Assembly (NCBI GenBank): GCA_049301335.1
Contig: JBAQKV010000030.1
Location: 1 to 22,823, forward strand
DNA from: Patescibacteria group bacterium
Lineage (GTDB): Bacteria > Patescibacteriota > Gracilibacteria > BD1-5 > UBA2023
Direction: 5' to 3'
Length of the DNA stretch: 22,823 nucleotides
Of this stretch, positions 1,243 through 21,818 are shown piece after piece. The notes under the pieces were generated by a model, which saw only the letters and a list, made by a program, of their open reading frames with translations, was not told the DNA's origin and did not search any database. Position 1 is the first letter of the stretch. Each line of letters begins with the position of its first letter. The translations under genes and the position numbers were made by a program.

Positions 1243-1776
1243 ATGCAAGAACAGATCGAACAAATCAGCCTCCGGTTTTTCACCCTCATGGGAATAACCG
1301 TAGAATCCGTTTCGGCCGAAGCGGAAGAAGAAAAGCGCCGCATCTACCGCGTCGCGGTTAAAACGCCCGATTCCAAGCTCCTCATCGGAATGCACGGCCA
1401 AACGCTCGAAACCGTCCGCCACCTGCTCACCCGCCTGGTAGAGCGTACCATCGGGAAATCGTTCCTCATCCACCTCGAGGTCAACGACTACCTCCAGTCG
1501 AAAGACGACCGCCTCTTCCGCCGCATCGACGAGAAGATCGCTTCGCTTAAGACTACCGGCTGAGAAACCACCCTCGGCGAACTCTCCAGCTACGAACGCA
1601 AGAAGGTCCACGCCTACGTGGCCGAAAAGAACGTCGAAGGGCTCTCCACCCGCTCCACCGGCGAAGGCGAATCCCGCGTTCTCCATCTGGCGTATTCCGG
1701 ACCGGTCGAAAAAGCCCACGTCCACGCCAAAGCCTCTTCCCTCGCCGATCTTTCCGAAGACGGGGTCGGAATCTAA
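1243..1776 (+). CDS. Jag/KhpB-like KH + R3H RNA-binding protein (177 aa; in-frame TGA at 1561-1563)
   Basis: ORF 1063..1563 continues in frame past TGA to TAA at 1774-1776. The C-terminal extension ...ETTLGELSSYERKKVHAYVAEKNVEGLSTRSTGEGESRVLHLAY... is an R3H-type motif. The N-terminal half (LLIGMHGQTLETVRHLL) is KH-like. Start chosen at ATG 1243 (MQEQIEQ...) because upstream codons overlap tRNA-Ser. Confidence 0.7.
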
Positions 1777-3007: not shown

Positions 3008-3871
3008 TTAGTTGTCGGCGTTGAAGAGGCTGTACCGGAGCGCGTCGAAGTGGCGGCTGCGGTTCTCTTTGAATTCGAGGTTGGAGATGGCGTTTCCGGC
3101 CTTCCCTACCGCCGCGACGGACATTACGGGCTTCGAGAAGCCGTTGGACGAATCCACGCGGTATTCGATAGGCGTAGCGCCCGGATTGGTAACCGCGAGA
3201 TACGCGTCTTCGTAGTCTTCGAGAAAGTCGGCGAGATTCACGGAAACGTCGGTGGTATCGTCGTTAGCGTCGACCGAACGCATGTTTCCGGCGATCACGG
3301 TAGCGGCCGAACCGTTTCCGACGATGGCAGCGAGCCCGCCCGTCCCTACGATTCCGTACGTCTTCCCCGAAGCGTCGGATCCCATTACGTTCCAAGAGAA
3401 CGGCGCGTCGGAAGAAACGGTGAAATCGAAGGTCCGCTCGACGTTCGAAGTGCCCGCGCGCGGGTCTTTGAAAGCCGCGGAATCCACGGTGGAAAGGATT
3501 TTTCCCTTATCGAAGAAGAGCGGGACGATTTCCATCTGCCCCGGTTGGAGAACGCCCGAATAGCTTTTGGAAAACGCGGAGAGCGAATACCCCATTTCGG
3601 CGGCGCGGCGGTCGGCGGAAACGAAAACTTTTCCGTCCGCGGACGAACGTTTCATGACGTCTTCGAACCCCTCGCGGTGGTTCTTCACCTTGAGCAACGC
3701 GTATTCCATTCCGCCTTCGGCTCAGGCGTACGCGGCGAAACCGTCGAAAAGCGAACGGCTGATGCGGGATTCCGCGACGAAAAGGAAAAGCACCCCCGCG
3801 GAAAGCACGACCAAAAAGGCCGTGAGGAGGATGGCGATGACGCTCGAGAATCCGCGTTGGTTGGTTCGCAT
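3008..3871 (-). CDS. PilX-like minor pilin / pilus-associated protein (287 aa; in-frame TGA at 3722-3724)
   Basis: ORFs 3722..3937 and 3008..3709 share a frame and join as ...FDGFAAYA[G]AEGGMEYALL.... The N-terminus MRTNQRGFSSVIAILLTAFLVVLSAG resembles the PilX N-terminal anchor (no Glu at +5). ATG 3871 lies 1 nt after the upstream TAG. Stop is TAA. Confidence 0.6.
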
Positions 3872-3872
3872 G

Positions 3873-4526
3873 CTAGTAGGACTTATAGATTTTCTCGCTG
3901 ATCGTCGTCTGCGCGCGGATCTTGAGTCCGGCCGCAACCTTCGGATCGACGCCCTTCCCTTCCGGAATAGCGAGGATGAACGACGCGGTGACTTTGGCTT
4001 CGCGGAGCGCTTCGGTACCCACGGTACCCGAAGTAACGGAATCGCCCGACGCCCCCACGATATGGAAGCGGAGCCCTTCGACCTTGACGCGGGAGTCGGT
4101 AAGCCGTTCGCGAGAAGAAGTACCGTCGGCGGCGACCGATTCGCGGCCGAGGTAGCACGCGCCGGAACCGGTGGAGTCGCAAGCTACCGGCCCGGAAACC
4201 GAATCTTCCATCAGGTAGTAGCGGGCGGCGTTGCCCAATGCGTCGGGACGGATGGCCAATACGGAATTCCCATTGCGGTAATCGAGGGTACGGATGGCGG
4301 AACCTCCGTCGTAGAACGAGAGGTCGACGCCCTTTTCGCGGATTTCCTTGGCGAACATTTCCGTCATCGAACGTCCGTTTTCTTGGAGGGAGCGGGCGAA
4401 TTCGAGGCGGCGGTTCAGAGAGAGCACTCCCAAATAGATTTCGAACACCGAAACCATCACCACCGCCAGAATGGTGACGGCGACGATCATTTCCACGAGG
4501 GTGAAGGCGTTCTGTCGGACTCTCAT
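3873..4526 (-). CDS. prepilin-type pseudopilin (PilW/GspJ-like, 217 aa)
   Basis: N-terminal MRVRQNA|FTLVEMIVAVTILAVV is a class III signal peptide / N-methylation motif with Glu at +5. Stop-start junctions on both sides suggest translational coupling. Confidence 0.8.
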   Translation of the reverse strand: MRVRQNAFTLVEMIVAVTILAVVMVSVFEIYLGVLSLNRRLEFARSLQENGRSMTEMFAKEIREKGVDLSFYDGGSAIRTLDYRNGNSVLAIRPDALGNAARYYLMEDSVSGPVACDSTGSGACYLGRESVAADGTSSRERLTDSRVKVEGLRFHIVGASGDSVTSGTVGTEALREAKVTASFILAIPEGKGVDPKVAAGLKIRAQTTISEKIYKSY

Positions 4527-4527
4527 A

Positions 4528-5190
4528 TTACCTTTTCCAATCGGTTATGACGGTATTCATCGAAAGCTCGCGGTACCCCGAAGCGACCGAGACGAAGTGC
4601 GCGGAAACGGCGAGCGCCCCGCTGACGGAAGCGGATCCCCCGCCCCCGGCCTGGTCGGCCGAAAGGTTGGAAACCGTAACGTACGCGTAGTACGGGGTTT
4701 TTGCGTTCGAACCGGAACAATCGTGTACGTAGCGCCCCTGGAGATCGAGACAGAGTCTGAACTTCGTACCGGATACGGCATTGGTTTCGGCGACGATGTC
4801 GGCCTTAGTGGGAGCGGCGGCGACGCGGTGGACGCGGACCGGCGAAGACGTGCTCGAAAAATCGTTCTCGATCACGTAGGTTCCCGGAGTGAGGCGGCAA
4901 TTGTCGGGAGACGGACAGAAAGACGGGTCTTCGGTGGTGACGGTGACTCCCGAGCGGAGCGAATCCCACGAACGGAGCCCCATCCAGTTGGAATCGCGAA
5001 CGTTCTTTACGAGTTCGAGGCGTTCGCGCAGGAGGTTACCCCCCACGATTTCGTCGCGCGAGCGCTCCGAAAGGAAGGTCGCGGTACGCAGGAGCGAATA
5101 CGCGGCCACGAGCCCGAGCGCGAACACGACGATAGCCACCATGAGTTCGATCATGGTGAACGCGCTGTTGGAACGGAAACGGTATCGCAT
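4528..5190 (-). CDS. prepilin-type pseudopilin (PilV/GspI-like, 220 aa)
   Basis: N-terminal MRYRFRSNSA|FTMIELMVAIVVFALG is a prepilin cleavage/methylation motif. Stop is TAA at 4528-4530. Confidence 0.8.
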   Translation of the reverse strand: MRYRFRSNSAFTMIELMVAIVVFALGLVAAYSLLRTATFLSERSRDEIVGGNLLRERLELVKNVRDSNWMGLRSWDSLRSGVTVTTEDPSFCPSPDNCRLTPGTYVIENDFSSTSSPVRVHRVAAAPTKADIVAETNAVSGTKFRLCLDLQGRYVHDCSGSNAKTPYYAYVTVSNLSADQAGGGGSASVSGALAVSAHFVSVASGYRELSMNTVITDWKR

Positions 5191-5191
5191 G

Positions 5192-5716
5192 CTAGTAAAC
5201 GGAAGCGTTACGGAACGGCTTGGAAAGACTGCCGGTGGAAGATCCCTTGAATCCTACGGTTCCTCCCGAAAAAACCAAGGCGTTCCCGTCGGCGTCGACC
5301 GAAGAAGGCGCGCCCGTAGGGGCGGAAAACTTCACCGTCACGAGGTCGGACGGCAGATCGCTGATGAGGACGTCCTTTTCGAGCGGAACTAGGCGGAGGA
5401 GCCGGTATTCCGAAGGCGCGGCGAATCCGCTGCCGGCTTTCGCCGCATAGAGCGAAAGCGACCCCGAGCCTTTCTGAAGGACTACGTAGGCGTCGCCGTT
5501 GAAATCGGTACCGGGGACGGACAAGCCCATGGCCGAAGTCAGTTTGGCTTCGGAAAAGGTCTGTTCGATCTTTTCCGAAGAAATGCGGACTTTGGCGATA
5601 TCGGAATAGTACGAATACGGCGCGTACGTCAAAACCGCGAGCAGCGAAACGATGGCGAGGACGACCATGAGTTCCACGAGCGAAAATCCGGAGGTTTTGG
5701 AAAAACGGGAATTCAT
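5192..5716 (-). CDS. prepilin-type pseudopilin (FimT/GspH-like, 174 aa)
   Basis: N-terminal MNSRFSKTSG|FSLVELMVVLAIVSLL is a canonical G|F-x-x-x-E prepilin motif. Stop is TAG at 5192-5194. Confidence 0.8.
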   Translation of the reverse strand: MNSRFSKTSGFSLVELMVVLAIVSLLAVLTYAPYSYYSDIAKVRISSEKIEQTFSEAKLTSAMGLSVPGTDFNGDAYVVLQKGSGSLSLYAAKAGSGFAAPSEYRLLRLVPLEKDVLISDLPSDLVTVKFSAPTGAPSSVDADGNALVFSGGTVGFKGSSTGSLSKPFRNASVY

Positions 5717-5726
5717 GGGAAACGGG

Positions 5727-6824
5727 TTATCCGACCACTTCGGTCACGCGCATGACGGCCGAGAAAATGGCGAGCGCGAACCAGAGGACGAATCCGCCGG
5801 CGAAAAGGATGGCGGCCGGTTCGACGAAGCGCACGAGGGTGGCGATGGATGCGTCGACTTCGCGGGAATATTGTTCAGCGAGGCGCGCGGTGACTTTGTT
5901 TACGGTGGAGGTGCGTTCTCCAGCCGCGATGATCTGTACGAAGTCGCGGGTGAAGACCTTGAAGGTCGGATCGACTTCCATGAAACTTTCGGCGAGCTTC
6001 TTGCCCATTTCGACCTTCGAGGCGACGTCGGCGATCATTTCTTCGTAGACGAGATTGCCGGTGGCTTCCCCGGTGAGGCGGAGGGTTTTGATGATGGGAA
6101 TTCCGGCTCAGATGAGGAGCGAAAGCATCGAGGAAACGCGGACGATGAGGTAGTTGCGGTAGAGCGATCCGATGAGCGGAGCGCGGAGGGCGTAACGGTC
6201 GAAGGCGAGGCGCCCCGAATAGGTCGAAAACCAAGCACGAAGCCCGAATGCCGCAAGTATGAAGAACGCGATGATGAGCGTGAAATTGTCTCGGACGAAA
6301 TTCGAGGTGTCCATAAGCGACGCCGTCACGGCCGGAAGTTCGGTTCCGGAAGTTTGGAAGAGCGGTACGAGCTTGGGCACGACGTAGGTCATGACGACGA
6401 GGACCGCCACCATGAGGAACGTCATGATGACGAGCGGGTACGTGAGCGCCCCGGTGAGCTTCATGCGGATTTCGTCGCGGGAGCGGAGGTCGGCGGCGAT
6501 GCTCGCGAACGACTTCTGCAAGGTACCGGACTGTTCGCCGGATTCTACGATGGAAATCTCCGCGCGTCCGAAGGTGCGCGGGAGTTTTTTCATGGCGGTG
6601 GATACCGGATCGCCGGATTCGACCAAAAGGACGAGTTCGGAGACTTCGGCGTAGAAGCGGGGATTCCCCACCTTTTCCAAGAACGAATGGAGCGCCTGGA
6701 TGACGGTTACGCCGCCTTCGACGAGATTGGAGAGGTGTTCGAAGAAGAGCGCCTTTTCCTTCGTTCCGACGCGGTGCCAGAAGCGTACCGGCGGAAGTCC
6801 GGTTTCCTGGGTGTTGCTTTCCAT
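5727..6824 (-). CDS. pilC: type IV pilus / T2SS platform protein PilC (GspF family, 365 aa; in-frame TGA at 6108-6110)
   Basis: ORFs 6108..6824 and 5727..6038 share a frame. The join reads ...VRVSSMLSLLI[G]AGIPIIKTLRLTGEATGNLVYEEMIADV..., which restores the second GspF repeat (compare the first repeat, LSNLVEGGVTVIQAL). It has three TM segments. Stop is TAA. Confidence 0.9.
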
Positions 6825-13964: not shown

Positions 13965-16900
13965 CTATTTCCTTACGATTTCGAACGATCCGCCCGCGTC
14001 GATCCAATGCCGGAGTTTGGAGAGAACGGCTTCGAGATCCTTCTTGGCGAGCGAACTACGGACGAACGGGACGGCGTTTTCGTATACGCGGGCGAGTTCC
14101 CCCGGACGGAACTCGTTCTTGCCGAAACTCTGCGAAATCCTCACGGCGACGCGGAAGATTCCGGGACGCTTGATGACGAACGATTCGCCGCCCACCGGGA
14201 AAAATCGGACGTATTGAACGTCGGAAACGTCGATTCCGGCCAACTCTTCGGCGACCGGACCGGTAAACGGATTGACGTCGGCGGCACCGTCTTGGGAAAC
14301 TTCGGAACCCGGGAACGGAAGGCGTCCGTCCGAGAAATTTTTCCAAGAGAATTCCTCAGACCATCCGCGCTTGACCGAACGTCCGTAGAGCTGTGAGAGG
14401 CCGATCATGAGCCCGCCGGTCACCATGAGGGCAAGCACTCGGACGCTGAGGTCGTCGACCCCGGCCCAAAGGTCGTAGAAGAGGATCTTCACGAGCATGT
14501 AGCTGCCTACGTAGAGACCGGCGGTACGGTATTTGGCCACGTCGGCGGAAACGCCCGCGAAAATGAGCGCCGAAGCGACGAGCGCGAGGTAGATGGTGAC
14601 GGCGAAGACGTTCTCGGAGAATACGCGGACGTACGCCGAAGTGACGAAGAGCGCCATGACGAGCGCGAAGGCCAGCGCGATGCGGCCTTCTTCGCGCTTC
14701 TTCGAGAAGTTCCAAGCGGAAAGCGCGACCACGGCGAGCGCGACGAGGTTCGCGGCCGCGGAGGTTTTATCAGCCTCGACCGCGCCGTATTGGACGAGCG
14801 TGAAGATTCCGGTAGCGAGAACGTAAGCGATACCCAGGAGTCCTTTTTCTTTTCCGTACGCGACGGAAGCCGCGAGGAAGAGGAACGATACCGCGAGGGT
14901 TTCGTAATCGGAAGCCACGACGCTAGTGAGCGCGAACGCCACGGCGACGGCACCGATACAATGCAAAACGTCGTAGGCGACCGCCCATCCGGTATCGCGC
15001 TTCTTCACGAAGAAAGCTCCGGCGAAGAGCGAGGCGGCGATGAGGGCGACGGTAACGAGCGCGGAGTAATTGCCGAAAGAAAGCGAGTCGAGAAACGGCA
15101 GGATCTTTACGAGACCGATGCCGAGAAGAACCGAGGATCCGGCGAGAAGGTGCGTATCCTTGGCTTTGGAATACAAAAACGCCAATACCGCGGATTCGAG
15201 GATCCATACGAACGAAACGACGCCCGGGGAATCGGCGAACACGACGGCGACGGCGAGCGAAAAGAGCGAAACCGGAACGGCCAATACTCCGTAAATTCCG
15301 TTTTTCGCGGAATCCGGAAGAGTGGAGAATTGGGAGAACGGCGCGTTCGCGATGAGGCGGGCGAGGGCAATGGAATAAACGGTGGAGAACGCGGCGACGC
15401 CGAGGTAGACGAACCCGAGCGTGACCATCGAACCTTCGTTCCCCGAGAACCAAAGGTCCTTTCCCAGATAGGCGATTTCTCCAGCGGCGAAGAGCGCTAC
15501 GACCGCCTTCTGTACGGCGAGCGCGAGCGAAGGCGTTCCGCGGGTGAGCGGAACCGATACGAACGGCACGGCGAGCGCAGCGGCGACGAAAAGCCCGAAC
15601 ATCGCCCATGAGAACCCCCACTGCGGCACGAGCACGAACGCGAGGAGTATCGCGCTCATGACGTTCGACATGAGCACGAGGAATTCGAGGCGTTTCCAAA
15701 CCGCGATGCCGGAAGAAAAGACGAAGAACGAAATTCCGGCGAGGGCGATCGCGAGGCGCTGCCCGTCAGGCATGGCGACCGGAGAGAGGTTCGAGAAGAT
15801 TCCGGAAAAGATCATGAATCCGCCGATGAGCGCGAAGAACGCGTAGCGGAACCAGGCGGAAAGCCGGTCGAGCACGAACGCCGAAGCCACTCCGTAGAGG
15901 AGGAAAATCGGCACGATGACGGCGGCGAACTGGTGCACGCCGAAAACCGCGAGCATCGCCGCGCCGAGCAGGAGCGGGATGAAGAGGGTCCAAGAGAGCA
16001 ACGCGCCTCCGGCGAACGCGGCGACCGAGAACGCCGAAAGGGCGAAGAGCGGCACGATGCCGAGGAAAATCGGAGCGACGGAGGTCGTTTTGGAAAGCAG
16101 GAGGAACAACGAAGCGTATCCGGCAGCGACGATGACGGCGGTTTTCGCGCCTCGGAAATTGCGGATGTCGACGACGGCGCCGATGACCGAAAGCAGGACG
16201 GAAATTCCCACGAAGACCGCGGTTTCCGTGGTCGAACGTACCGCGAAGGCGTTGATCATCCCCACGAGGAACGAACCGCCCACGACGACGTTCACCAGCC
16301 AGGAAGCGTCGGCATTGGATTCTTCGCCGCGTTTCGAGAGGATGCCAGCCAAGAGGTATCCGGCGGCGGTAAGGATGGCGTTATATCCGAGAAGCCCGTA
16401 CGGACCACGCGGTTCGGCACCCACCAAGAACGGGATGGCGTACCCGAAAGCGAACGAGAAGAGCAGGAAGGTGCGCGACGAATAGACCAGGGCCGTAGCG
16501 ACCGCGAAGGCCGTATTGAGCACGAGGAATCCCATCGTCACCGTGTCGGAAAGGTAGCCTTCTCCCCCGCCGACCATGAAGCGGCCGGAAAGGATGGTCA
16601 GGGCGTTGATGGCGATGCCTACGCCCAAAAGCGTCCGGGATTCCACGACGTGGCCACGGGAGTCCATCCATACGCCGATACCGTAGAGCGAAAACCCGAA
16701 CGCGAGGCCGATGAGGATTTTCCCCACCGGGCCGACTTCCTGCCAAACGAGGGAAAGGAAGAATACCGCGCCCAAAAACAGGAGCGTTCCACCGATTTTC
16801 GCGAGTGGACGGTCGGAGAAGAATTCCACGAACCAGTTCGGTTTTTCCGGTTCCGCGGGCACGACCGGACGCGGGGCACGAACCGGCGGTTGGACGGTTT

Positions 16901-17246
16901 CGAAGTATTCGGACTCCCGTTCGGCGGCAACGGAAAGGGATTCGAGCGTCGTCTCGTATTCGACGTCCGAAGCGGCAAGCGGTTCCGAAATGCGTTCGGT
17001 TTCTTTGCGAGCGGGTTCGCGTTCCGTTTTTTTAGCCGACCGGACTCCTTCGCCGAGGGCGGATTCGATGAAGTCCTTCGAAAGGAACGAAGCCCGGGCG
17101 ACCGCGGCGGAAATGAGGAAAATTATCCATCAGTATTCGAGGAACGATTCGGAAGGACGGGAAGTGAACCCGCAGAAGAAATACGCCACGAGGAAGCCGA
17201 CGATGACGCTGAGCATGATGGCGAACCGGTTGAGTACGTTGAACAT
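13965..17246 (-). CDS. very large polytopic membrane protein, DUF2339-like (1093 aa; in-frame TGA at 17130-17132)
   Basis: The 965-aa ORF 13965..16862 has a GTG track start. It extends upstream in frame through one TGA to ATG 17246 (MFNVLNRFAIMLSVIVGFLVAYFF...EY[G]WIIFLISAAV...). That region adds two N-terminal TMs and an acidic linker. More than 20 hydrophobic segments follow, organised as in DUF2339 proteins, and then a ~150-aa soluble C-terminal domain. Stop is TAG. Confidence 0.7.
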
Positions 17247-19033: not shown

Positions 19034-19060
19034 TTGACAATCCTATTTTATTATTAGAAT
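19034..19060 (+). promoter_or_regulatory. promoter of small paralog P2 (TTGACAATC ... TAGAATC)
   Basis: TTGACA at 19034-19039 and TAGAAT at 19055-19060 with a 15-nt spacer, inside the perfect palindrome AGGATT-TGAC-AATCCT. The nonamer and spacing match the P1 promoter. Confidence 0.55.
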
Positions 19061-19107
19061 CCGAAACGGCAATCCTGCCGAGACACTAAGAAGAAAGGGT
19101 ACGCTTC

Positions 19108-19467
19108 ATGAAAAAGAACTCCGGCCGCCGCAAGAGCGTTCTGTTCACCTGCCGTGAAAATCCGGCTCCCGGCCAGAACTATGCCAGCCCCCACGTCCTG
19201 CTGCCGCGCTATGACGTTTCCAAGGTGAAGCTGGGCGTGCTGAACAACATCGGCAAGACCCCGCGCCTGCGCATTCCGCGGCACATGGAATACATCAAGG
19301 ACCTCAGCGAGGCCAACACCCGCATCCTCATCCAAGGGAGCGGCCACGGCCCGTCCTACGTGATCGCGCTCGACTGGGAAGTCATGTTCATGCTCGAACG
19401 CGCCGGTGCCGTTCGTCTGAAGGATTCCTACCGCCACGAGCTCATGGGCTCGCCCAAGGCATCCTGA
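19108..19467 (+). CDS. small basic protein, paralog P2 (119 aa to the TGA), possibly SpoVT/AbrB-like fold, function unknown
   Basis: ATG preceded by GAAAGGG. It is paralogous to P1 and B (see 11899 and 13345). The only stop-like codon is TGA (19465-19467), followed by a terminator. Leucine codons look richer in CTG than in neighbouring genes. Confidence 0.6.
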   Translation: MKKNSGRRKSVLFTCRENPAPGQNYASPHVLLPRYDVSKVKLGVLNNIGKTPRLRIPRHMEYIKDLSEANTRILIQGSGHGPSYVIALDWEVMFMLERAGAVRLKDSYRHELMGSPKAS

Positions 19468-19496
19468 CCGTCGCGTAAGCGATCGGTCTCGGGCCG

Positions 19497-19531
19497 AAAA
19501 GAAAACCCCCTCGCACGAGGGGGTTTTGATT
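19497..19531. terminator. bidirectional intrinsic terminator between P2 and ftsK
   Basis: AAAAGAAAACCCCCTC-gcac-GAGGGGGTTTT, a 7-bp GC stem. Confidence 0.75.
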
Positions 19532-19556
19532 TGCGTCCAAACGGGCGCGTTTTTCG

Positions 19557-21818
19557 TTATCCTATAACTTCCCTCGGCTTGCTTCCGTCGGCGGGTCCGA
19601 CGATACCGAGGCGTTCGAGAATGTCCATGACGCGCGCGGCGCGGCTGTAGCCGAGTCGCATATGGCGCTGGAGCATCGACGTGGAAGCCTTGCCCTGCGA
19701 ACGGACGAACGCGATGGCTTCTTCGAGGACCTTTGGGTCTTCGTCCATGCCTCCGTCGTTGCGTTCGAGACCGCCCTCGTTGTTCCCGCGGTCGCCTTCG
19801 ACGATCGACGGGTCGTAGAGGTCTTCGAGCATTTCCGGGTCGATGGTGAGCTTGATGCGATTGACCACGGATTCCACTTCTTCGGTACTGACGAACACGC
19901 CCTGTACGCGCTCCGGAGCCATCGAGCCGACCGGCGAGAAGAGCATGTCGCCCATGCCGAGGAGGTCTTCGGCGCCCTGGCGGTCGAGAACCGTGCGGGA
20001 GTCGACGAGCGACGCCACCGTGAACGCGATGCGGGACGGGATGTTCGCCTTGATGAGACCGGTGATGACGTCTACGGAAGGACGTTGCGTCGCGACCACC
20101 AAGTGCATTCCTGCGGCCCGGCCCATCTGCGCTATGCGGCAGATGGCGGCTTCGATTTCCTTCTTATTGCCCGACATCATGAAGTCGGCGAGTTCGTCGA
20201 TGATGACGACGATGACCGGTTCCCGCTTCTTCTTGTCGACCTTTTCGTTGAATTCGGCGATGTTGCGGACGCGCGCCGATTTGAAATTGTCGTAGCGGCG
20301 GATCATTTCGGCTACGGCCCATTTGAGCGCGTTCAATGCCTTGTCGGATTCGCTGATGACCGGGGTCAGAAGGTGCGGAATGCCGTCGTACACGCCGAGT
20401 TCGACGCGCTTGGGGTCGACCATGATCATGCGGAGGTCGGACGGCGAGTTCTTGTAGAGGAGCGAGAGGATGATGCCGTTCATACCGACGGACTTACCGG
20501 AACCGGTCTGCCCCGCGATGAGGAGGTGCGGCATCTTGGTGAGGTCCCCCACCACGAAGTCGCCGTTGATATCCTTCCCAAGGGCGTACGCGAGTTTGGA
20601 TTTATGGCTCTTGAAATTGCCGTGTTCGAGGACTTCGCGGATTCCCACCATGTCGCGTTTCTCGTTGGGAACTTCGATACCCACGAGCCCGACTCCCGGA
20701 ATCGGCGCCTGGATGCGGATCGACTTGGCCTTGAGGGCGAGGGTGAGGTCCTTCTTGAGGTTTTCGATCTTCGAAAGGCGCACGCCGTCGTTGGGATCAA
20801 GACGGTACTGTACGACCGTCGGTCCGGCCTTGTGGCCCGCCATTTCGACGCTGATGCCGAACTGGAGGAGCGTCTGCTTGATCATGAGCGACTTCTCTTT
20901 GATTTCGGATTCCGAAACGGTGTTCTTGTGCTCTACGTGGCTGAGGATGGAAGTCGGCGGAAATTCCCAAGTTCCGAAATCCGGGGAAGATTTCTTGGGA
21001 GCGTCATGCTTGGCGAGTTCGGCGATGCCGGTCTTGGGAACGGACTTCGCGTCTTCGGTTCCTTCGCCTTCCTCTTTTCCGAAGAAGTTCGCGAGGATGC
21101 TCTTGGGCTCCTTCTTGATGATGGGAATGTGCTTCGGAGCGTTGGCAATCGAAAGCTGCGACGGTTCGGGCTTTTCGACGGCCTTCTTTTCACGGTCGCG
21201 CTCCGCGCGGATCGCTTCGAGCTCCTTTTCGATCTTCTTGCGCTCGACGTCGTATTCGGCCTTGAGTTTCTTATCGACCTTCGGATCCTTCGAAGGCTTG
21301 TCGTCGGAACGGAATTCCTTCGCGACGGCCTTGACCGACTCTACGGACGGGAGTTTCGAATGGATGTGCGAAATGACCTTGCGGTACGAAATGCGGAGCG
21401 TGAGGTAGAGCGAGACGAGAAAGATGACTACGAGGAAAATCACCGCGGGCGAACGGCCGAAGAGGTCCTTGAAAACGTCGAAGAAATCGAGGTACCCGTT
21501 CCAAGCCGATGGGTTCCACATTTCCGAAAGCGAGGTAACGGAAATCCAGAACAGAAGGAGCCCGAAAAACCTCGCGAAATTCCACGAAAGGCGGTTTACG
21601 GCGATCATGGCGCCGATGGCAGCGACGATGGGTACGAAAAATTCGCGGTAACGCACGCCGAGCAGTTGTGAAAGGGCGCCTTCGAGAGCTCCGCCCACGA
21701 GCGAAGTCTTGTCGCCGAACATGACGAGCGCTGCCAAAAACAGCAAAAAACCTCCGAAGAAAAGGCTGCGGAGTTCTTGCCCGATTACGGGTCATTTCTG
21801 TTTTTTCTTTCTCGCCAT
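19557..21818 (-). CDS. ftsK: DNA translocase FtsK (753 aa; in-frame TGA at 21792-21794)
   Basis: The C-terminal motor carries Walker A (GQTGSGKS), Walker B (VVIIDELADFMM) and a gamma winged-helix domain (SMLQRHMRLGYSRAARVMDILERLGIVGP). There are N-terminal TM segments. The ORF-track start is an internal TTG. The frame extends through one TGA to ATG 21818 (MARKKKQK[G]PVIGQELRSLFFGGFLLFLAAL...). Stop is TAA. Confidence 0.95.

Follow-up and report, generated by a model that had tools for sequence, protein, structure and literature searches.

A patescibacterial gene family with terminal TGA codons ahead of a terminator in a genome that translates UGA as glycine

The P2 Gene

The window, meaning the whole 22,823-nt stretch of DNA that was analysed (contig JBAQKV010000030.1, assembly GCA_049301335.1), comes from an organism of 58% G+C related to a 'Candidatus Peribacteria' MAG within Patescibacteria (CPR). 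The P2 coding sequence (19108–19464, plus strand) comprises 119 codons with no internal TGA and belongs to an orphan family. It is preceded on the same strand by a promoter and leader start (19034–19071), composed of TTGACA (19034–39), a 15-nt spacer, TAGAAT (19055–60) and CGGCA (19067–71), which is kept in eight orthologous loci. The 5′ UTR (19067–19099) is strongly conserved between loci and carries a small hairpin, CGGCA-AUCC-UGCCG, followed by the Shine-Dalgarno sequence GAAAGGG (19093–99), both of which were read off the sequence itself. The last residues of P2, ...MGSPKAS, are followed by TGA (19465–19467, plus strand), the sole stop-like codon and one that this genome decodes as glycine; past it the frame translates as PSRKRSVSGRKENPLARGGFDL... 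and meets its first in-frame stop of any kind at a TAG (19648–19650), 60 codons on, inside the convergent ftsK gene. The latter (19557–21746, minus strand) ends in TAA, contains no in-frame TGA in the window, and matches the Pfam FtsK alpha, motor and gamma domains. The initial annotation, made from the sequence alone, had described P2 as having TGA for its only stop-like codon, then a terminator, and a first TAG about 60 codons later within ftsK; all of this held, positions included.

P2 is a real and strongly signalled gene, whose 119-residue product belongs to an orphan, lineage-restricted family. Its orthologues are 115–119 aa long, and codon positions 1 and 2 are better conserved than position 3. 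An AF2 model (pLDDT 77.6) predicts a beta-alpha-beta-beta-alpha-beta core. No homologues of P2 were found in Pfam, NCBIfam, PHROGs, PADLOC or PDB sequences, no member of the P family matched Pfam or NCBIfam, and Foldseek searches of PDB and BFVD gave no fold match for P2 (best E > 0.5). For P2, just 18 representative clusters were found in a set of 1.84 billion proteins. As regards a viral origin, neither P2 nor gene A has relatives in IMG/VR, and none of P2 was found in INPHARED phage records.

Structures at the P2 3′ End

Three hairpins lie at the P2 3′ end. The first, H1 (19437–19452, plus strand, CGAGCU-CAUG-GGCUCG), is predicted by alignment folding within the final P2 codons, where two synonymous changes produce one compensatory pair. 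The second, H2 (19458–19495, plus strand), has 14 pairs and a GNRA tetraloop, GUAA, and holds the UGA in its stem (G19466-C19488 and A19467-U19487); its folding energy is −19.7 kcal/mol (z = −3.3), 97% of cells in the alignment are paired, with two compensatory pairs, and the loop varies only among GUAA, GCAA, GAAA and GCGA. Nucleotide identity in H2 is 84–97%, compared with 52–76% at P2 third positions. A −1 frameshift to the TAA of the GUAA loop was rejected, that TAA being missing from the GCAA, GAAA and GCGA variants. A metagenome scan for the H2 motif CCGTCGCGNAANCGATYGG returned at least 120 chance matches, none of them adjoining a P2 homologue.

The third is a bidirectional intrinsic terminator common to P2 and ftsK (19502–19533, both strands), which starts 35 nt after the P2 UGA and has an 11-bp stem, a GCAC loop and a plus-strand T-tract. 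Its hairpin (19502–19527) reads AAAACCCCCTC-GCAC-GAGGGGGTTTT and the T-tract extends to 19533; the folding energy is −19.8 kcal/mol (z = −4.8). The element folds on the ftsK strand too, with the A-tract at 19497–19505 supplying the U-tract of the minus-strand terminator. The stem covaries in lineages L007 and L008, with two compensatory pairs, and the usual description of a Rho-independent terminator, namely a G+C-rich hairpin with a U-tract and conserved structure, is met. Throughout the family, the hairpin and T-tract are kept despite differing sequences, with compensatory changes, and P-family terminators are thus judged to be real. An Rfam search gave only tRNAs above threshold, with weak sub-threshold matches to terminator-containing families near the P2 terminator.

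Reading of UGA in This Genome

The organism translates UGA as glycine. Nine in-frame TGAs and no internal TAA or TAG occur in 5803 housekeeping codons of the window; the genes concerned are pilC, prsW, hrcA, jag, a thrombospondin-type-3-repeat (TSP3) protein and a DUF2339 protein, and the Pfam domains T2SSF, PrsW, HrcA, R3H and TSP_3 run across such codons. For instance, the TGA of pilC (6108–6110, minus strand) stands at the conserved glycine of ...SLLI-G-AGIPII..., and the joined 365-aa product contains two T2SSF domains (E = 8e-45). In hrcA, codon 152 of 253 is TGA (11375–11377, minus strand) in the window and in lineages L010, L004 and L005, and the frame runs on into the HrcA C-terminal domain (Pfam match at residues 100–243). 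The two TGAs of the TSP3 protein (17832–34 and 18072–74, minus strand) occupy repeat glycine positions (NGK-G-DVCD) and are GGN in relatives; similarly, prsW has two (9049–51 and 9301–03, minus strand), one of which is spanned by the PrsW-protease domain, while L005 has GGG at both columns. The DUF2339 membrane protein (13965–17246, minus strand) has a TGA near its N-terminus (17130–17132) that is GGN in six relatives, and in the jag/KhpB-like gene with KH and R3H domains the R3H match spans the TGA (1561–1563, plus strand).

Related loci point the same way. They contain 26 TGA columns, in which the alternative codon is nearly always GGN, and in nine independent assemblies the internal stops of essential genes (ftsK, murA, pilC) are always TGA, never TAA or TAG, and lie at Gly columns. 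A 214-aa gene ends in TGA-TTC-GCN-TAR, and its TGA must be translated, since the GCN after it shows synonymous variation. UGA use is low and variable in the lineage, at 2–7% of Gly codons. In L005, where TGA makes up 7% of Gly codons, with eight in one gene, efficient decoding as glycine is therefore required; the ftsK orthologue of this lineage has three TGAs, each at a Gly position, and P1, P2 and B of the same lineage retain a terminal TGA. In the sequence examined (about 20-kb genome pieces), only tRNA-Ala(GGC) and tRNA-Ser(GGA) were found, and no tmRNA gene was present.

It can be seen from the above that the P2 reading frame has no TAA or TAG under the cell's own code. The initial annotation was silent on TGA as glycine, and it is because the genome reads TGA in this way that the arrangement it had pointed out is a real anomaly.

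The P Family and Its Endings

P2 has two paralogues in the window, and the family has three paralogues per genome; the family proteins are 104–183 aa in size, and their evolution is fast and mosaic, with protein identity down to 25–60%. P1 (11820–12278, plus strand) has a promoter at 11820–51, a coding sequence at 11899–12231, TGA at 12232–34 and a terminator at 12250–12271 with a T-tract, and no in-frame TAA or TAG. It is followed by a hypervariable gene of unknown function, A (12274–13272, plus strand; promoter 12274–12307, coding sequence from 12346), in which TGA (13261–63) precedes GAA GAA TAA (TAA at 13270–72); this TGA stands where relatives have CGG (Arg) or CCG (Pro), and the relatives end in ...REE or ...PEE and then TAA or TAG. 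Paralogue B (13273–13932, plus strand) has a promoter at 13273–13311, a leader hairpin that sequesters the Shine-Dalgarno sequence, a coding sequence at 13345–13881, TAA at 13882–84 and a terminator at 13901–13926, and its relatives have TGA at the codon where window B has TAA.

Of 28 family genes from 13 lineages, 25 have a terminal TGA and then a hairpin with a T-tract: P1 in 7/7 lineages, P2 in 9/10, B in 7/8, plus two distant members. The three exceptions end in TAA (window B and L132) or TAG (L010 P2), and the family terminal codon is never GGN. The TGA lies 3–9 codons past a Y-x-H motif, at non-homologous distances in different paralogues, with the terminator hairpin 15–35 nt from it. 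TGA ends P1 and P2 in the window, whereas B and all 19 non-family genes stop at TAA or TAG; these 19 genes accordingly obey the rule of genetic code 25 that UGA never ends genes, which P1 and P2 violate. The TGA-then-terminator ending occurs in none of the non-family genes within about 170 kb of related loci. What exceeds chance is the presence of a terminal TGA in a genome where TGA is glycine, and its restriction to the P family. The claim that the arrangement is conserved in the family rather than accidental thus held, and the survey that had been proposed to find whether it occurs at the chance rate, limited here to those 170 kb, showed it to be family-specific and did not bear out the chance reading.

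The family is also distinct in its promoters and codon usage. The window has four matches to TTGAYA-N14-19-ANAAT-N0-12-CGGCA, a promoter/leader pattern derived post hoc, and these lie only upstream of P1, A, B and P2 (0.01 expected); in short form, the promoter/leader is TTGACAAT...TAGAAT...CGGCA. Leucine codons in P2 show CTG:CTC = 7:5, compared with 50:374 in other genes (Fisher p = 2e-4), and in four lineages the family has a ratio of about 1:1.2 where housekeeping genes have 1:7 to 1:9. The earlier claim that P2 favours CTG more than its CTC-preferring neighbours is therefore upheld, and the suggestion that this could point to a different origin or expression regime is supported by the family-wide bias. 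Internal TGA is absent from 2898 family codons, where about 4–5 would be expected.

The Open Frame Beyond the TGA

The frame past the P2 TGA (19468–19650, plus strand) spans H2, the terminator, a non-conserved spacer (19531–56) and antisense ftsK before ending at the TAG of 19648–50. It is not a conserved coding extension. One-nucleotide A-tract indels change the frame between P2 orthologues, in which the next stop of any kind lies from 9 to more than 80 codons past the TGA; spacer identity between orthologues is only about 30%, the coding score downstream of the TGA is negative, and L010 P2 stops at a TAG four codons upstream and carries TGG in place of the TGA. Because this frame is not conserved as protein, a 180-aa P2 product is judged not to be real, and the proposal that evidence for such a product might refute the initial finding fails, neither frame nor length being conserved.

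No TAA or TAG precedes the T-tract in any of the 19 TGA-ending family genes, which is what a non-stop message under UGA = Gly should show. The same claim for P2 in the initial annotation is true; the absence by itself, however, is near chance expectation, as TAA or TAG between TGA and terminator turns up in 6 of 38 readings when these regions are taken out of frame, against 0 of 19 in frame, and selection against in-frame TAA or TAG after the TGA is not significant.

Possible Explanations of the Terminal UGA

The mechanism that ranks first, inferred with a little less than even confidence, is that the P2 mRNA is effectively stop-less and freed by ribosome rescue. In this model, the P2 message would act as a non-stop mRNA: ribosomes would insert glycine at UGA, translate about 21 further codons until the message runs out at its terminator-defined 3′ end, and need release through tmRNA/SmpB tagging or hydrolysis of the ArfB type. 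How much P2 is present and what becomes of it (and the same for P1, and for B in relatives) would then hinge on UGA decoding and the capacity for rescue, by a logic analogous to that of arfA and brfA. It has been reported that BrfA and ArfA are expressed from terminator-truncated non-stop mRNAs (PMC6881298). In favour of the model are the reading of UGA as glycine, the TAA or TAG endings of all non-family genes, the real terminators and the lack of protein conservation in the post-UGA frame. Against it, such a design needs no UGA, and yet TGA ends 25/28 of the family genes and is never GGN; the replacements at the site are all real stops (TAA, TAG, TAA), the pattern expected of a stop codon; three strongly promoted non-stop genes would burden the rescue system heavily; and no likeness of the family to ArfA/BrfA in size, sequence or fold was found. 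UGA may serve as a slow or partly terminating codon, the choice of UGA being unexplained by the non-stop model. The P2 C-terminus would read ...SYRHELMGSPKAS if UGA terminates and ...KASGPSRK... if it is read through as glycine.

The main rival, held as possible, is that UGA has a dual meaning, being glycine within genes and terminating P-family messages, with RF2 or another factor coexisting with a Gly-inserting tRNA and a P2 product of 119 aa. The cue would be nearness of the mRNA 3′ end or of the terminator hairpin (15–35 nt) or, for P2, H2, which by analogy would make this UGA a bacterial counterpart of position-dependent ciliate stop codons. It has been reported that the reading of stop codons in Euplotes depends on position (PMC10235951), and Condylostoma likewise uses position-dependent stop codons. 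Retention of TGA at non-homologous distances past Y-x-H in paralogues, its replacement only by TAA or TAG, the lack of internal TGAs in the family, and codon usage and a promoter type of its own, as if under a separate expression regime, all speak for this explanation. In addition, according to the gTranslate preprint, some genomes with a weak UGA-to-Gly signal still carry prfB. However, a comparison of local nucleotide context found nothing that distinguishes sense from terminal UGAs, no housekeeping gene stops at TGA, and L005 needs efficient decoding as glycine and still has terminal TGAs. The P2 context is UGA-C, which is the weakest RF2 context in E. coli. Nearly all described UGA-reassigned bacteria are without RF2, and neither a bacterial precedent nor a mechanism is known to us. 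In a bolder form, which remains no more than possible, the terminal UGA is a selected termination signal or a termination-versus-readthrough switch for the co-regulated, fast-evolving P1, A, B and P2, and this set may keep 'standard-code punctuation' together with its own codon usage and promoter type. By extension, termination could need a UGA-release activity absent in normal growth, for example from an invading standard-code phage; alternatively, release activity may vary with tRNA-Gly(UCA) supply, the family being a sensor of the decoding state.

It is unlikely that the TGAs are fossil stops, that is, codons that predate the code change and are now plain glycine, with junk-extended or tagged products tolerated and no function. 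Single lineages have swapped TGA for TAA or TAG (window B, L010 P2, L132), which fits favoured or neutral repair, and other ancestral sense TGAs are long-lived, such as hrcA codon 152 and that of the 214-aa gene. Every other gene, however, has long since gained TAA or TAG; retention in 25/28 is far above neutral in genes evolving as fast as these (25–60% protein and 52–76% third-position identity); GGN never appears at the terminal TGA, whereas internal TGA columns mostly alternate with GGN; and exclusivity to the P1, A, B and P2 set would count against it.

Two explanations are all but excluded. The first is that the long product is real, with UGA as glycine, a non-terminating hairpin, a 180-aa P2 reaching the TAG at 19648, and P1 fused in frame to A. 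The P2 frame is open for 60 codons, and P1 and A share a frame in the window, L010 and L004; the extension, however, differs in frame and length in every lineage, and the negative post-TGA coding score, the low spacer identity and the upstream TAG of L010 also speak against it, while no conserved amino-acid sequence or dN/dS below 1 was seen in the post-TGA frame across lineages. The P1–A readthrough fusion was rejected in particular: the shared frame is confined to three close lineages, and the two genes are in different frames in L005 and L134. The second is a standard-code gene end, with TGA a normal stop and the other in-frame TGAs explained by pseudogene decay or errors of assembly; orthologues do interchange stop codons (B has TAA or TGA), family protein lengths are consistent with ending at TGA, and most stops also precede long open frames, but this reading of the P2 end cannot stand in a genome that uses UGA as glycine, as first the conserved in-frame TGA of hrcA and then tblastn indicated, internal stops in nine assemblies being TGA only, at Gly columns, with Pfam domains continuing across them.

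Comparison with Known Systems

A SECIS/selenocysteine reading of H2 was considered and rejected: a bacterial SECIS is likewise a conserved hairpin tied to an in-frame UGA, but H2 holds the UGA inside its stem, with the loop only 8 nt downstream, and there is no conserved extension; the downstream frame shifts by indels, L010 has TAG upstream, and no Cys/Sec alignment exists. Genetic code 25 (Absconditabacteria, BD1-5; GTDB class JAEDAM01) is closer. As in that code, UGA occurs at conserved glycines of housekeeping genes, ordinary genes stop at TAA or TAG, and the organism is a Patescibacteria/CPR bacterium; unlike in it, the organism has 58% G+C, above the published range of 0.21–0.53, UGA is used sparingly and to a variable degree, a single gene family retains UGA endings, and the closest genome with a name carries the label 'Candidatus Peribacteria', a group handled under table 11 in the literature searched. 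Run with table 11, gene callers break up this clade's housekeeping genes, and split calls are visible in public assemblies; run with table 25, they will extend P1, P2 and B wrongly. Reassignment of a stop codon is commonly portrayed as all-or-none, with UGA becoming glycine, RF2 lost and UGA stops purged; here, a G+C-rich CPR lineage with UGA as glycine keeps, apparently under selection, one UGA-ending family before a terminator.

The arfA gene of E. coli and brfA of B. subtilis, non-stop mRNA genes controlled by trans-translation, resemble the P family in that, by the code the cell actually uses, the frame meets no stop ahead of a hairpin or intrinsic terminator. They differ in being one 55–72-aa factor rather than three paralogues of 104–183 aa per genome, in showing no sequence or fold similarity to the family, and in that ArfA and BrfA need RF2, which is expected to be missing from a cell with UGA as glycine; moreover, in the P family a conserved UGA marks the end of a conserved protein. 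If the non-stop reading is true, a recoded organism would add a new family to those under control in the style of arfA and brfA. With the ciliates Condylostoma and Euplotes, the P family shares a codon that is sense within genes and apparently terminal near the transcript 3′ end. Those organisms are eukaryotes whose cue involves the poly(A) region, whereas here one family only is concerned, and this is a resemblance only; if the context-dependent reading is true, the terminal UGA of the P family would give bacteria their first case of a stop codon that depends on position or context, as well as a living 'ambiguous intermediate' in a change of code.

Gene End of P2 and Its Terminator

P2, a protein of unknown function, is encoded on the forward strand at 19108–19467 (119 codons), with a near-consensus promoter upstream (TTGACA at 19034–39, TAGAAT at 19055–60) and the Shine–Dalgarno sequence GAAAGGG at 19093–99; its C-terminus, ...MGSPKAS, is followed by TGA at 19465–19467. 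The frame after this TGA translates as PSRKRSVSGRKENPLARGGFDL... and crosses a terminator hairpin, AAAACCCCCTC-GCAC-GAGGGGGTTTT (19502–19527, T-tract reaching 19533), and no stop of any kind precedes TAG at 19648–50, 60 codons downstream, within the convergent ftsK (19557–21746, reverse strand, ending in TAA, with Pfam FtsK alpha, motor, and gamma domains). The initial annotation had described this TGA end, terminator, and distant TAG, and every element was confirmed. Its stress on the lack of TAA/TAG before the terminator is true but uninformative alone, because these codons are rare in any frame of short G+C-rich regions (0/19 in frame versus 6/38 out of frame between TGA and terminator). 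With an A-tract on one side and a T-tract on the other, the hairpin forms just as well from the ftsK strand, which makes it a bidirectional terminator. Several terminators, here (13901–13926 and 19502–19527) and in related loci, are near-identical, AAAACCCCCTC-NNNN-GAGGGGGTTTT; they lie between the convergent pairs B/DUF2339 and P2/ftsK and act bidirectionally.

Under the standard bacterial code (table 11), the P2 end looked ordinary, because TGA, TAA, and TAG are in about equal use at ORF ends, at 58% G+C most stops are followed by tens of further open codons in the same frame, P2 orthologues measure 115–119 aa, and stop codons swap among orthologues; for instance, B ends in TAA here versus TGA in four relatives, and in the P2 orthologue of L010, a related locus, a TAG comes four codons sooner and TGG stands where TGA would be. 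This reading was dropped in view of hrcA and of glycine-aligned TGAs in relatives. The 151-codon hrcA ORF closes on a TGA kept in relatives, and HrcA-like sequence goes on for 101 codons in frame to a TAG. In tblastn searches of the window proteins against related loci, the internal stops of orthologues were all TGA, nearly all opposite Gly; in locus L005, for example, ftsK has three and the DUF2339 protein eight, and murA of locus L004 has one.

Reading of UGA as Glycine

UGA encodes glycine in this genome. ORFs joined across TGA give complete proteins with Pfam domains spanning it, namely pilC/T2SSF (TGA at the conserved Gly of SLLI-G-AGIP; two domains, E = 8e-45), the PrsW protease, HrcA (C-terminal domain), a Jag/KhpB-like protein (KH + R3H), and a thrombospondin-type-3-repeat protein with TGAs at the repeat Gly (NGK-G-DVCD). 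The in-frame TGAs lie at 1561–63, 2203–05, 6108–10, 9049–51, 9301–03, 11375–77, 17130–32, 17832–34, and 18072–74, and possibly also at 3722–24. Across the window and seven relatives, 26 codon columns contain TGA, and the partner codons are almost always GGN. Housekeeping genes contain 9 in-frame TGAs in 5803 codons in the window (2.0% of Gly codons), 8 in 4438 in L010 (2.3%), 10 in 4454 in L004 (2.8%), and 25 in 4460 in L005 (7.2%), so that the UGA share varies about 3.5-fold among close lineages (2% to 7%); none of the genes counted in these four has an internal TAA or TAG. Similarly, a 214-aa membrane protein (L010 14150–14161 and orthologues; the window equivalent falls past its right end) terminates as ...LFL-TGA-TTC-GCN-TAR in six lineages (L010, L004, L005, L007, L008, and L009). 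This TGA is translated, since Phe-Ala is retained after it with synonymous GCN variation, and it is thus a long-conserved sense TGA three codons ahead of the real stop, directly upstream of a terminator. No tRNA with anticodon UCA was found in the sequences obtained, which are the window and pieces of related genomes, not complete genomes; tRNA-Ala(GGC) (269–345) and tRNA-Ser(GGA) (1029–1116) lie on the reverse strand. Table-11 gene calls in public assemblies split pilC, prsW, hrcA, ftsK, murA, DUF2339, M48 peptidase, and NrdD.

The nearest named genome is the 'Candidatus Peribacteria' MAG CAYZVC010000001.1 (90–97% identical in nucleotides across most of the window). Peribacterales belong to class Gracilibacteria. 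In the literature searched, UGA-to-Gly is assigned to GTDB class JAEDAM01 (Absconditabacterales + BD1-5), and class Gracilibacteria is handled as table 11, bar a few genomes suspected to be misplaced; a code-25-like UGA = Gly occurs here at 58% G+C, with the nearest named relative's group treated as table 11.

A type IV pilus cluster, of the sort typically seen in CPR episymbionts, also lies in the window (3008–6824, reverse strand); it comprises pilC (T2SSF) plus three or more prepilin-type (N-methyl) proteins. The hrcA gene (11069–11830, reverse strand) has 253 codons including one sense TGA, which is unusually short against about 340 aa in model bacteria, and appears to lack the central portion normally present in the protein.

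Terminal TGA in the P Family

Once UGA is taken as Gly, a TAA or TAG closes each of the 19 protein genes of the window that fall outside the family, and the only genes with a terminal TGA are P2 and P1 (11899–12231, terminator 15 nt downstream). P1, P2, and the N-terminal domain of B (13345–13881) are paralogues; the family comprises only 18 representative clusters among 1.84 billion proteins in an exhaustive profile search, and most members end 2–9 residues past a conserved Y-x-H motif. At the DNA level, 28 family genes drawn from 13 lineages were inspected, and 25 end in TGA, with a real stop in the other three: P1 7/7; P2 9/10 (TAG in L010); B 7/8 (TAA in the window); and distant members 2/3, with TGA in L133 (convergent with ftsK) and L134 (107 aa) and TAA in L132. 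The TGA-ending genes have a hairpin and T-tract 11–55 nt downstream without an in-frame TAA/TAG in between, and no internal TGA occurs in 2898 family codons. Among about 95 in-frame TGAs of table-25 ORFs at eleven loci, no non-family gene has a terminator after the TGA without a nearby TAA/TAG.

RNA Structure Downstream of the UGA

From the last 15 P2 codons to the terminator, nucleotides are far better conserved than P2 third positions (84–97% identity over 19468–19498 versus 52–76%), and in the spacer between terminator and ftsK identity is down to about 30%. Folding predicts three hairpins: H1 (19437–19452, within the coding sequence), H2 (19458–19495; 14 pairs, −19.7 kcal/mol, UGA inside the stem), and the terminator. 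Pairing holds in 97.4% of cells across ten sequences, with compensatory changes at five pairs, a result matched by none of 500 shuffles, with slid controls far lower; the H2 tetraloop varies only among GUAA, GCAA, GAAA, and GCGA, a GNRA signature. One-nucleotide A-tract indels move the post-UGA frame among orthologues, and each lineage has its next in-frame stop at a different position, on which grounds a 180-aa P2 product was rejected. The region after the UGA is a conserved RNA structure rather than protein.

Promoter, Codon Use, and Evolution of the P Family

A pattern derived post hoc, TTGAYA-N14-19-ANAAT-N0-12-CGGCA, has four matches in the window (0.01 expected), upstream of P1 (11820–11851), A (12274–12307), B (13273–13311), and P2 (19034–19071). 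The shared signature reads TTGACAAT..., TAGAAT or CACAAT, then CGGCA within 12 nt, and is absent elsewhere in the window; this sharing suggests that the four genes form one regulon with a common operator/leader element. In the B leader (13300–13344), near hrcA, a 9-bp hairpin, CCCUUCCGG...CCGGAAGGG, conserved in relatives, sequesters the Shine–Dalgarno just ahead of the ATG; judged from sequence alone, it could serve to switch translation or act as an RNA thermometer.

MurA is 94–95% identical to the window protein in all five relatives compared (L010, L004, L005, L136, and L137), whereas P1 shows 94, 70, 65, 68, and 64%, P2 63, 59, 89, 82, and 85%, respectively, and A, a hypervariable gene of unknown function between P1 and B, about 50% throughout, nearest genome L010 included. 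This fast mosaic evolution of P1, A, and P2 suggests allele exchange. The centre of A (12346–13272), at 12601–12900, has no blastn similarity to any relative, while its flanks share 95% identity with L010; P2 matches that of L010 at 63% identity but those of otherwise more distant genomes at 82–89%. Allele replacement or diversifying selection could explain both. A P1-A fusion was rejected as not conserved, the frame being common to only three close lineages.

The family had no match in Pfam, NCBIfam, PHROG, PADLOC, or PDB sequences, and no viral relatives were found. The AlphaFold model of P2 (pLDDT 77.6, pTM 0.71) has a beta-alpha-beta-beta-alpha-beta core, and Foldseek returned no significant match to it.

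In four lineages, the CTG:CTC ratio of Leu codons is about 1:1.2 in the family, as against 1:7 to 1:9 for housekeeping genes (p = 4e-3 to 1e-6). The heavier CTG use that the initial annotation had noted in P2 therefore holds and extends to the family. Its claim that TGA-then-terminator is a conserved family property also held; the genome survey it proposed, run on eleven loci only, confined the arrangement to the family, and the extended product that it said would refute it is not real. Its finding is real, and its interpretation holds up.

Mechanism of Termination

P-family frames lack TAA/TAG before a conserved terminator, and their terminal codon is conserved as TGA. The reading we prefer, although it is inferred and our doubt slightly outweighs our confidence, is that these messages are effectively non-stop: the ribosome would insert Gly at the terminal UGA, reach the mRNA 3′ end about 21 codons beyond, and be freed by rescue, as with arfA and brfA, the precedent for rescue-released non-stop messages (PMC6881298). 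This reading asks for no more than what is already known of a UGA = Gly cell. It also fits L005, where a single gene has eight UGAs that are decoded, yet all three family genes retain the terminal TGA. Its weak point is that UGA is not required, yet is kept.

The main rival, which remains possible, is that UGA is still a stop at P-family ends, its dual meaning cued by nearness to the 3′ end or by the hairpin. In its favour, TGA is retained as the terminal codon, with real stops as its only replacements and GGN never among them, which tells against the non-stop reading; against it, no local context separates terminal from sense UGAs, TGA is a stop in no housekeeping gene, and to our knowledge there is no bacterial precedent. 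Three further readings fit the data poorly: that the TGAs are fossil stops, which is unlikely, and an ordinary table-11 stop and a real long product, which are both all but excluded.

The P family is a lineage-specific, fast-evolving group, co-regulated as inferred from the shared promoter pattern, whose terminal codon has stayed UGA in an otherwise UGA = Gly bacterium. At most, if dual meaning were true, this would be the first context-dependent stop codon in bacteria; at least, it is a new variant, in a recoded organism, of the non-stop-message gene design known from arfA and brfA.
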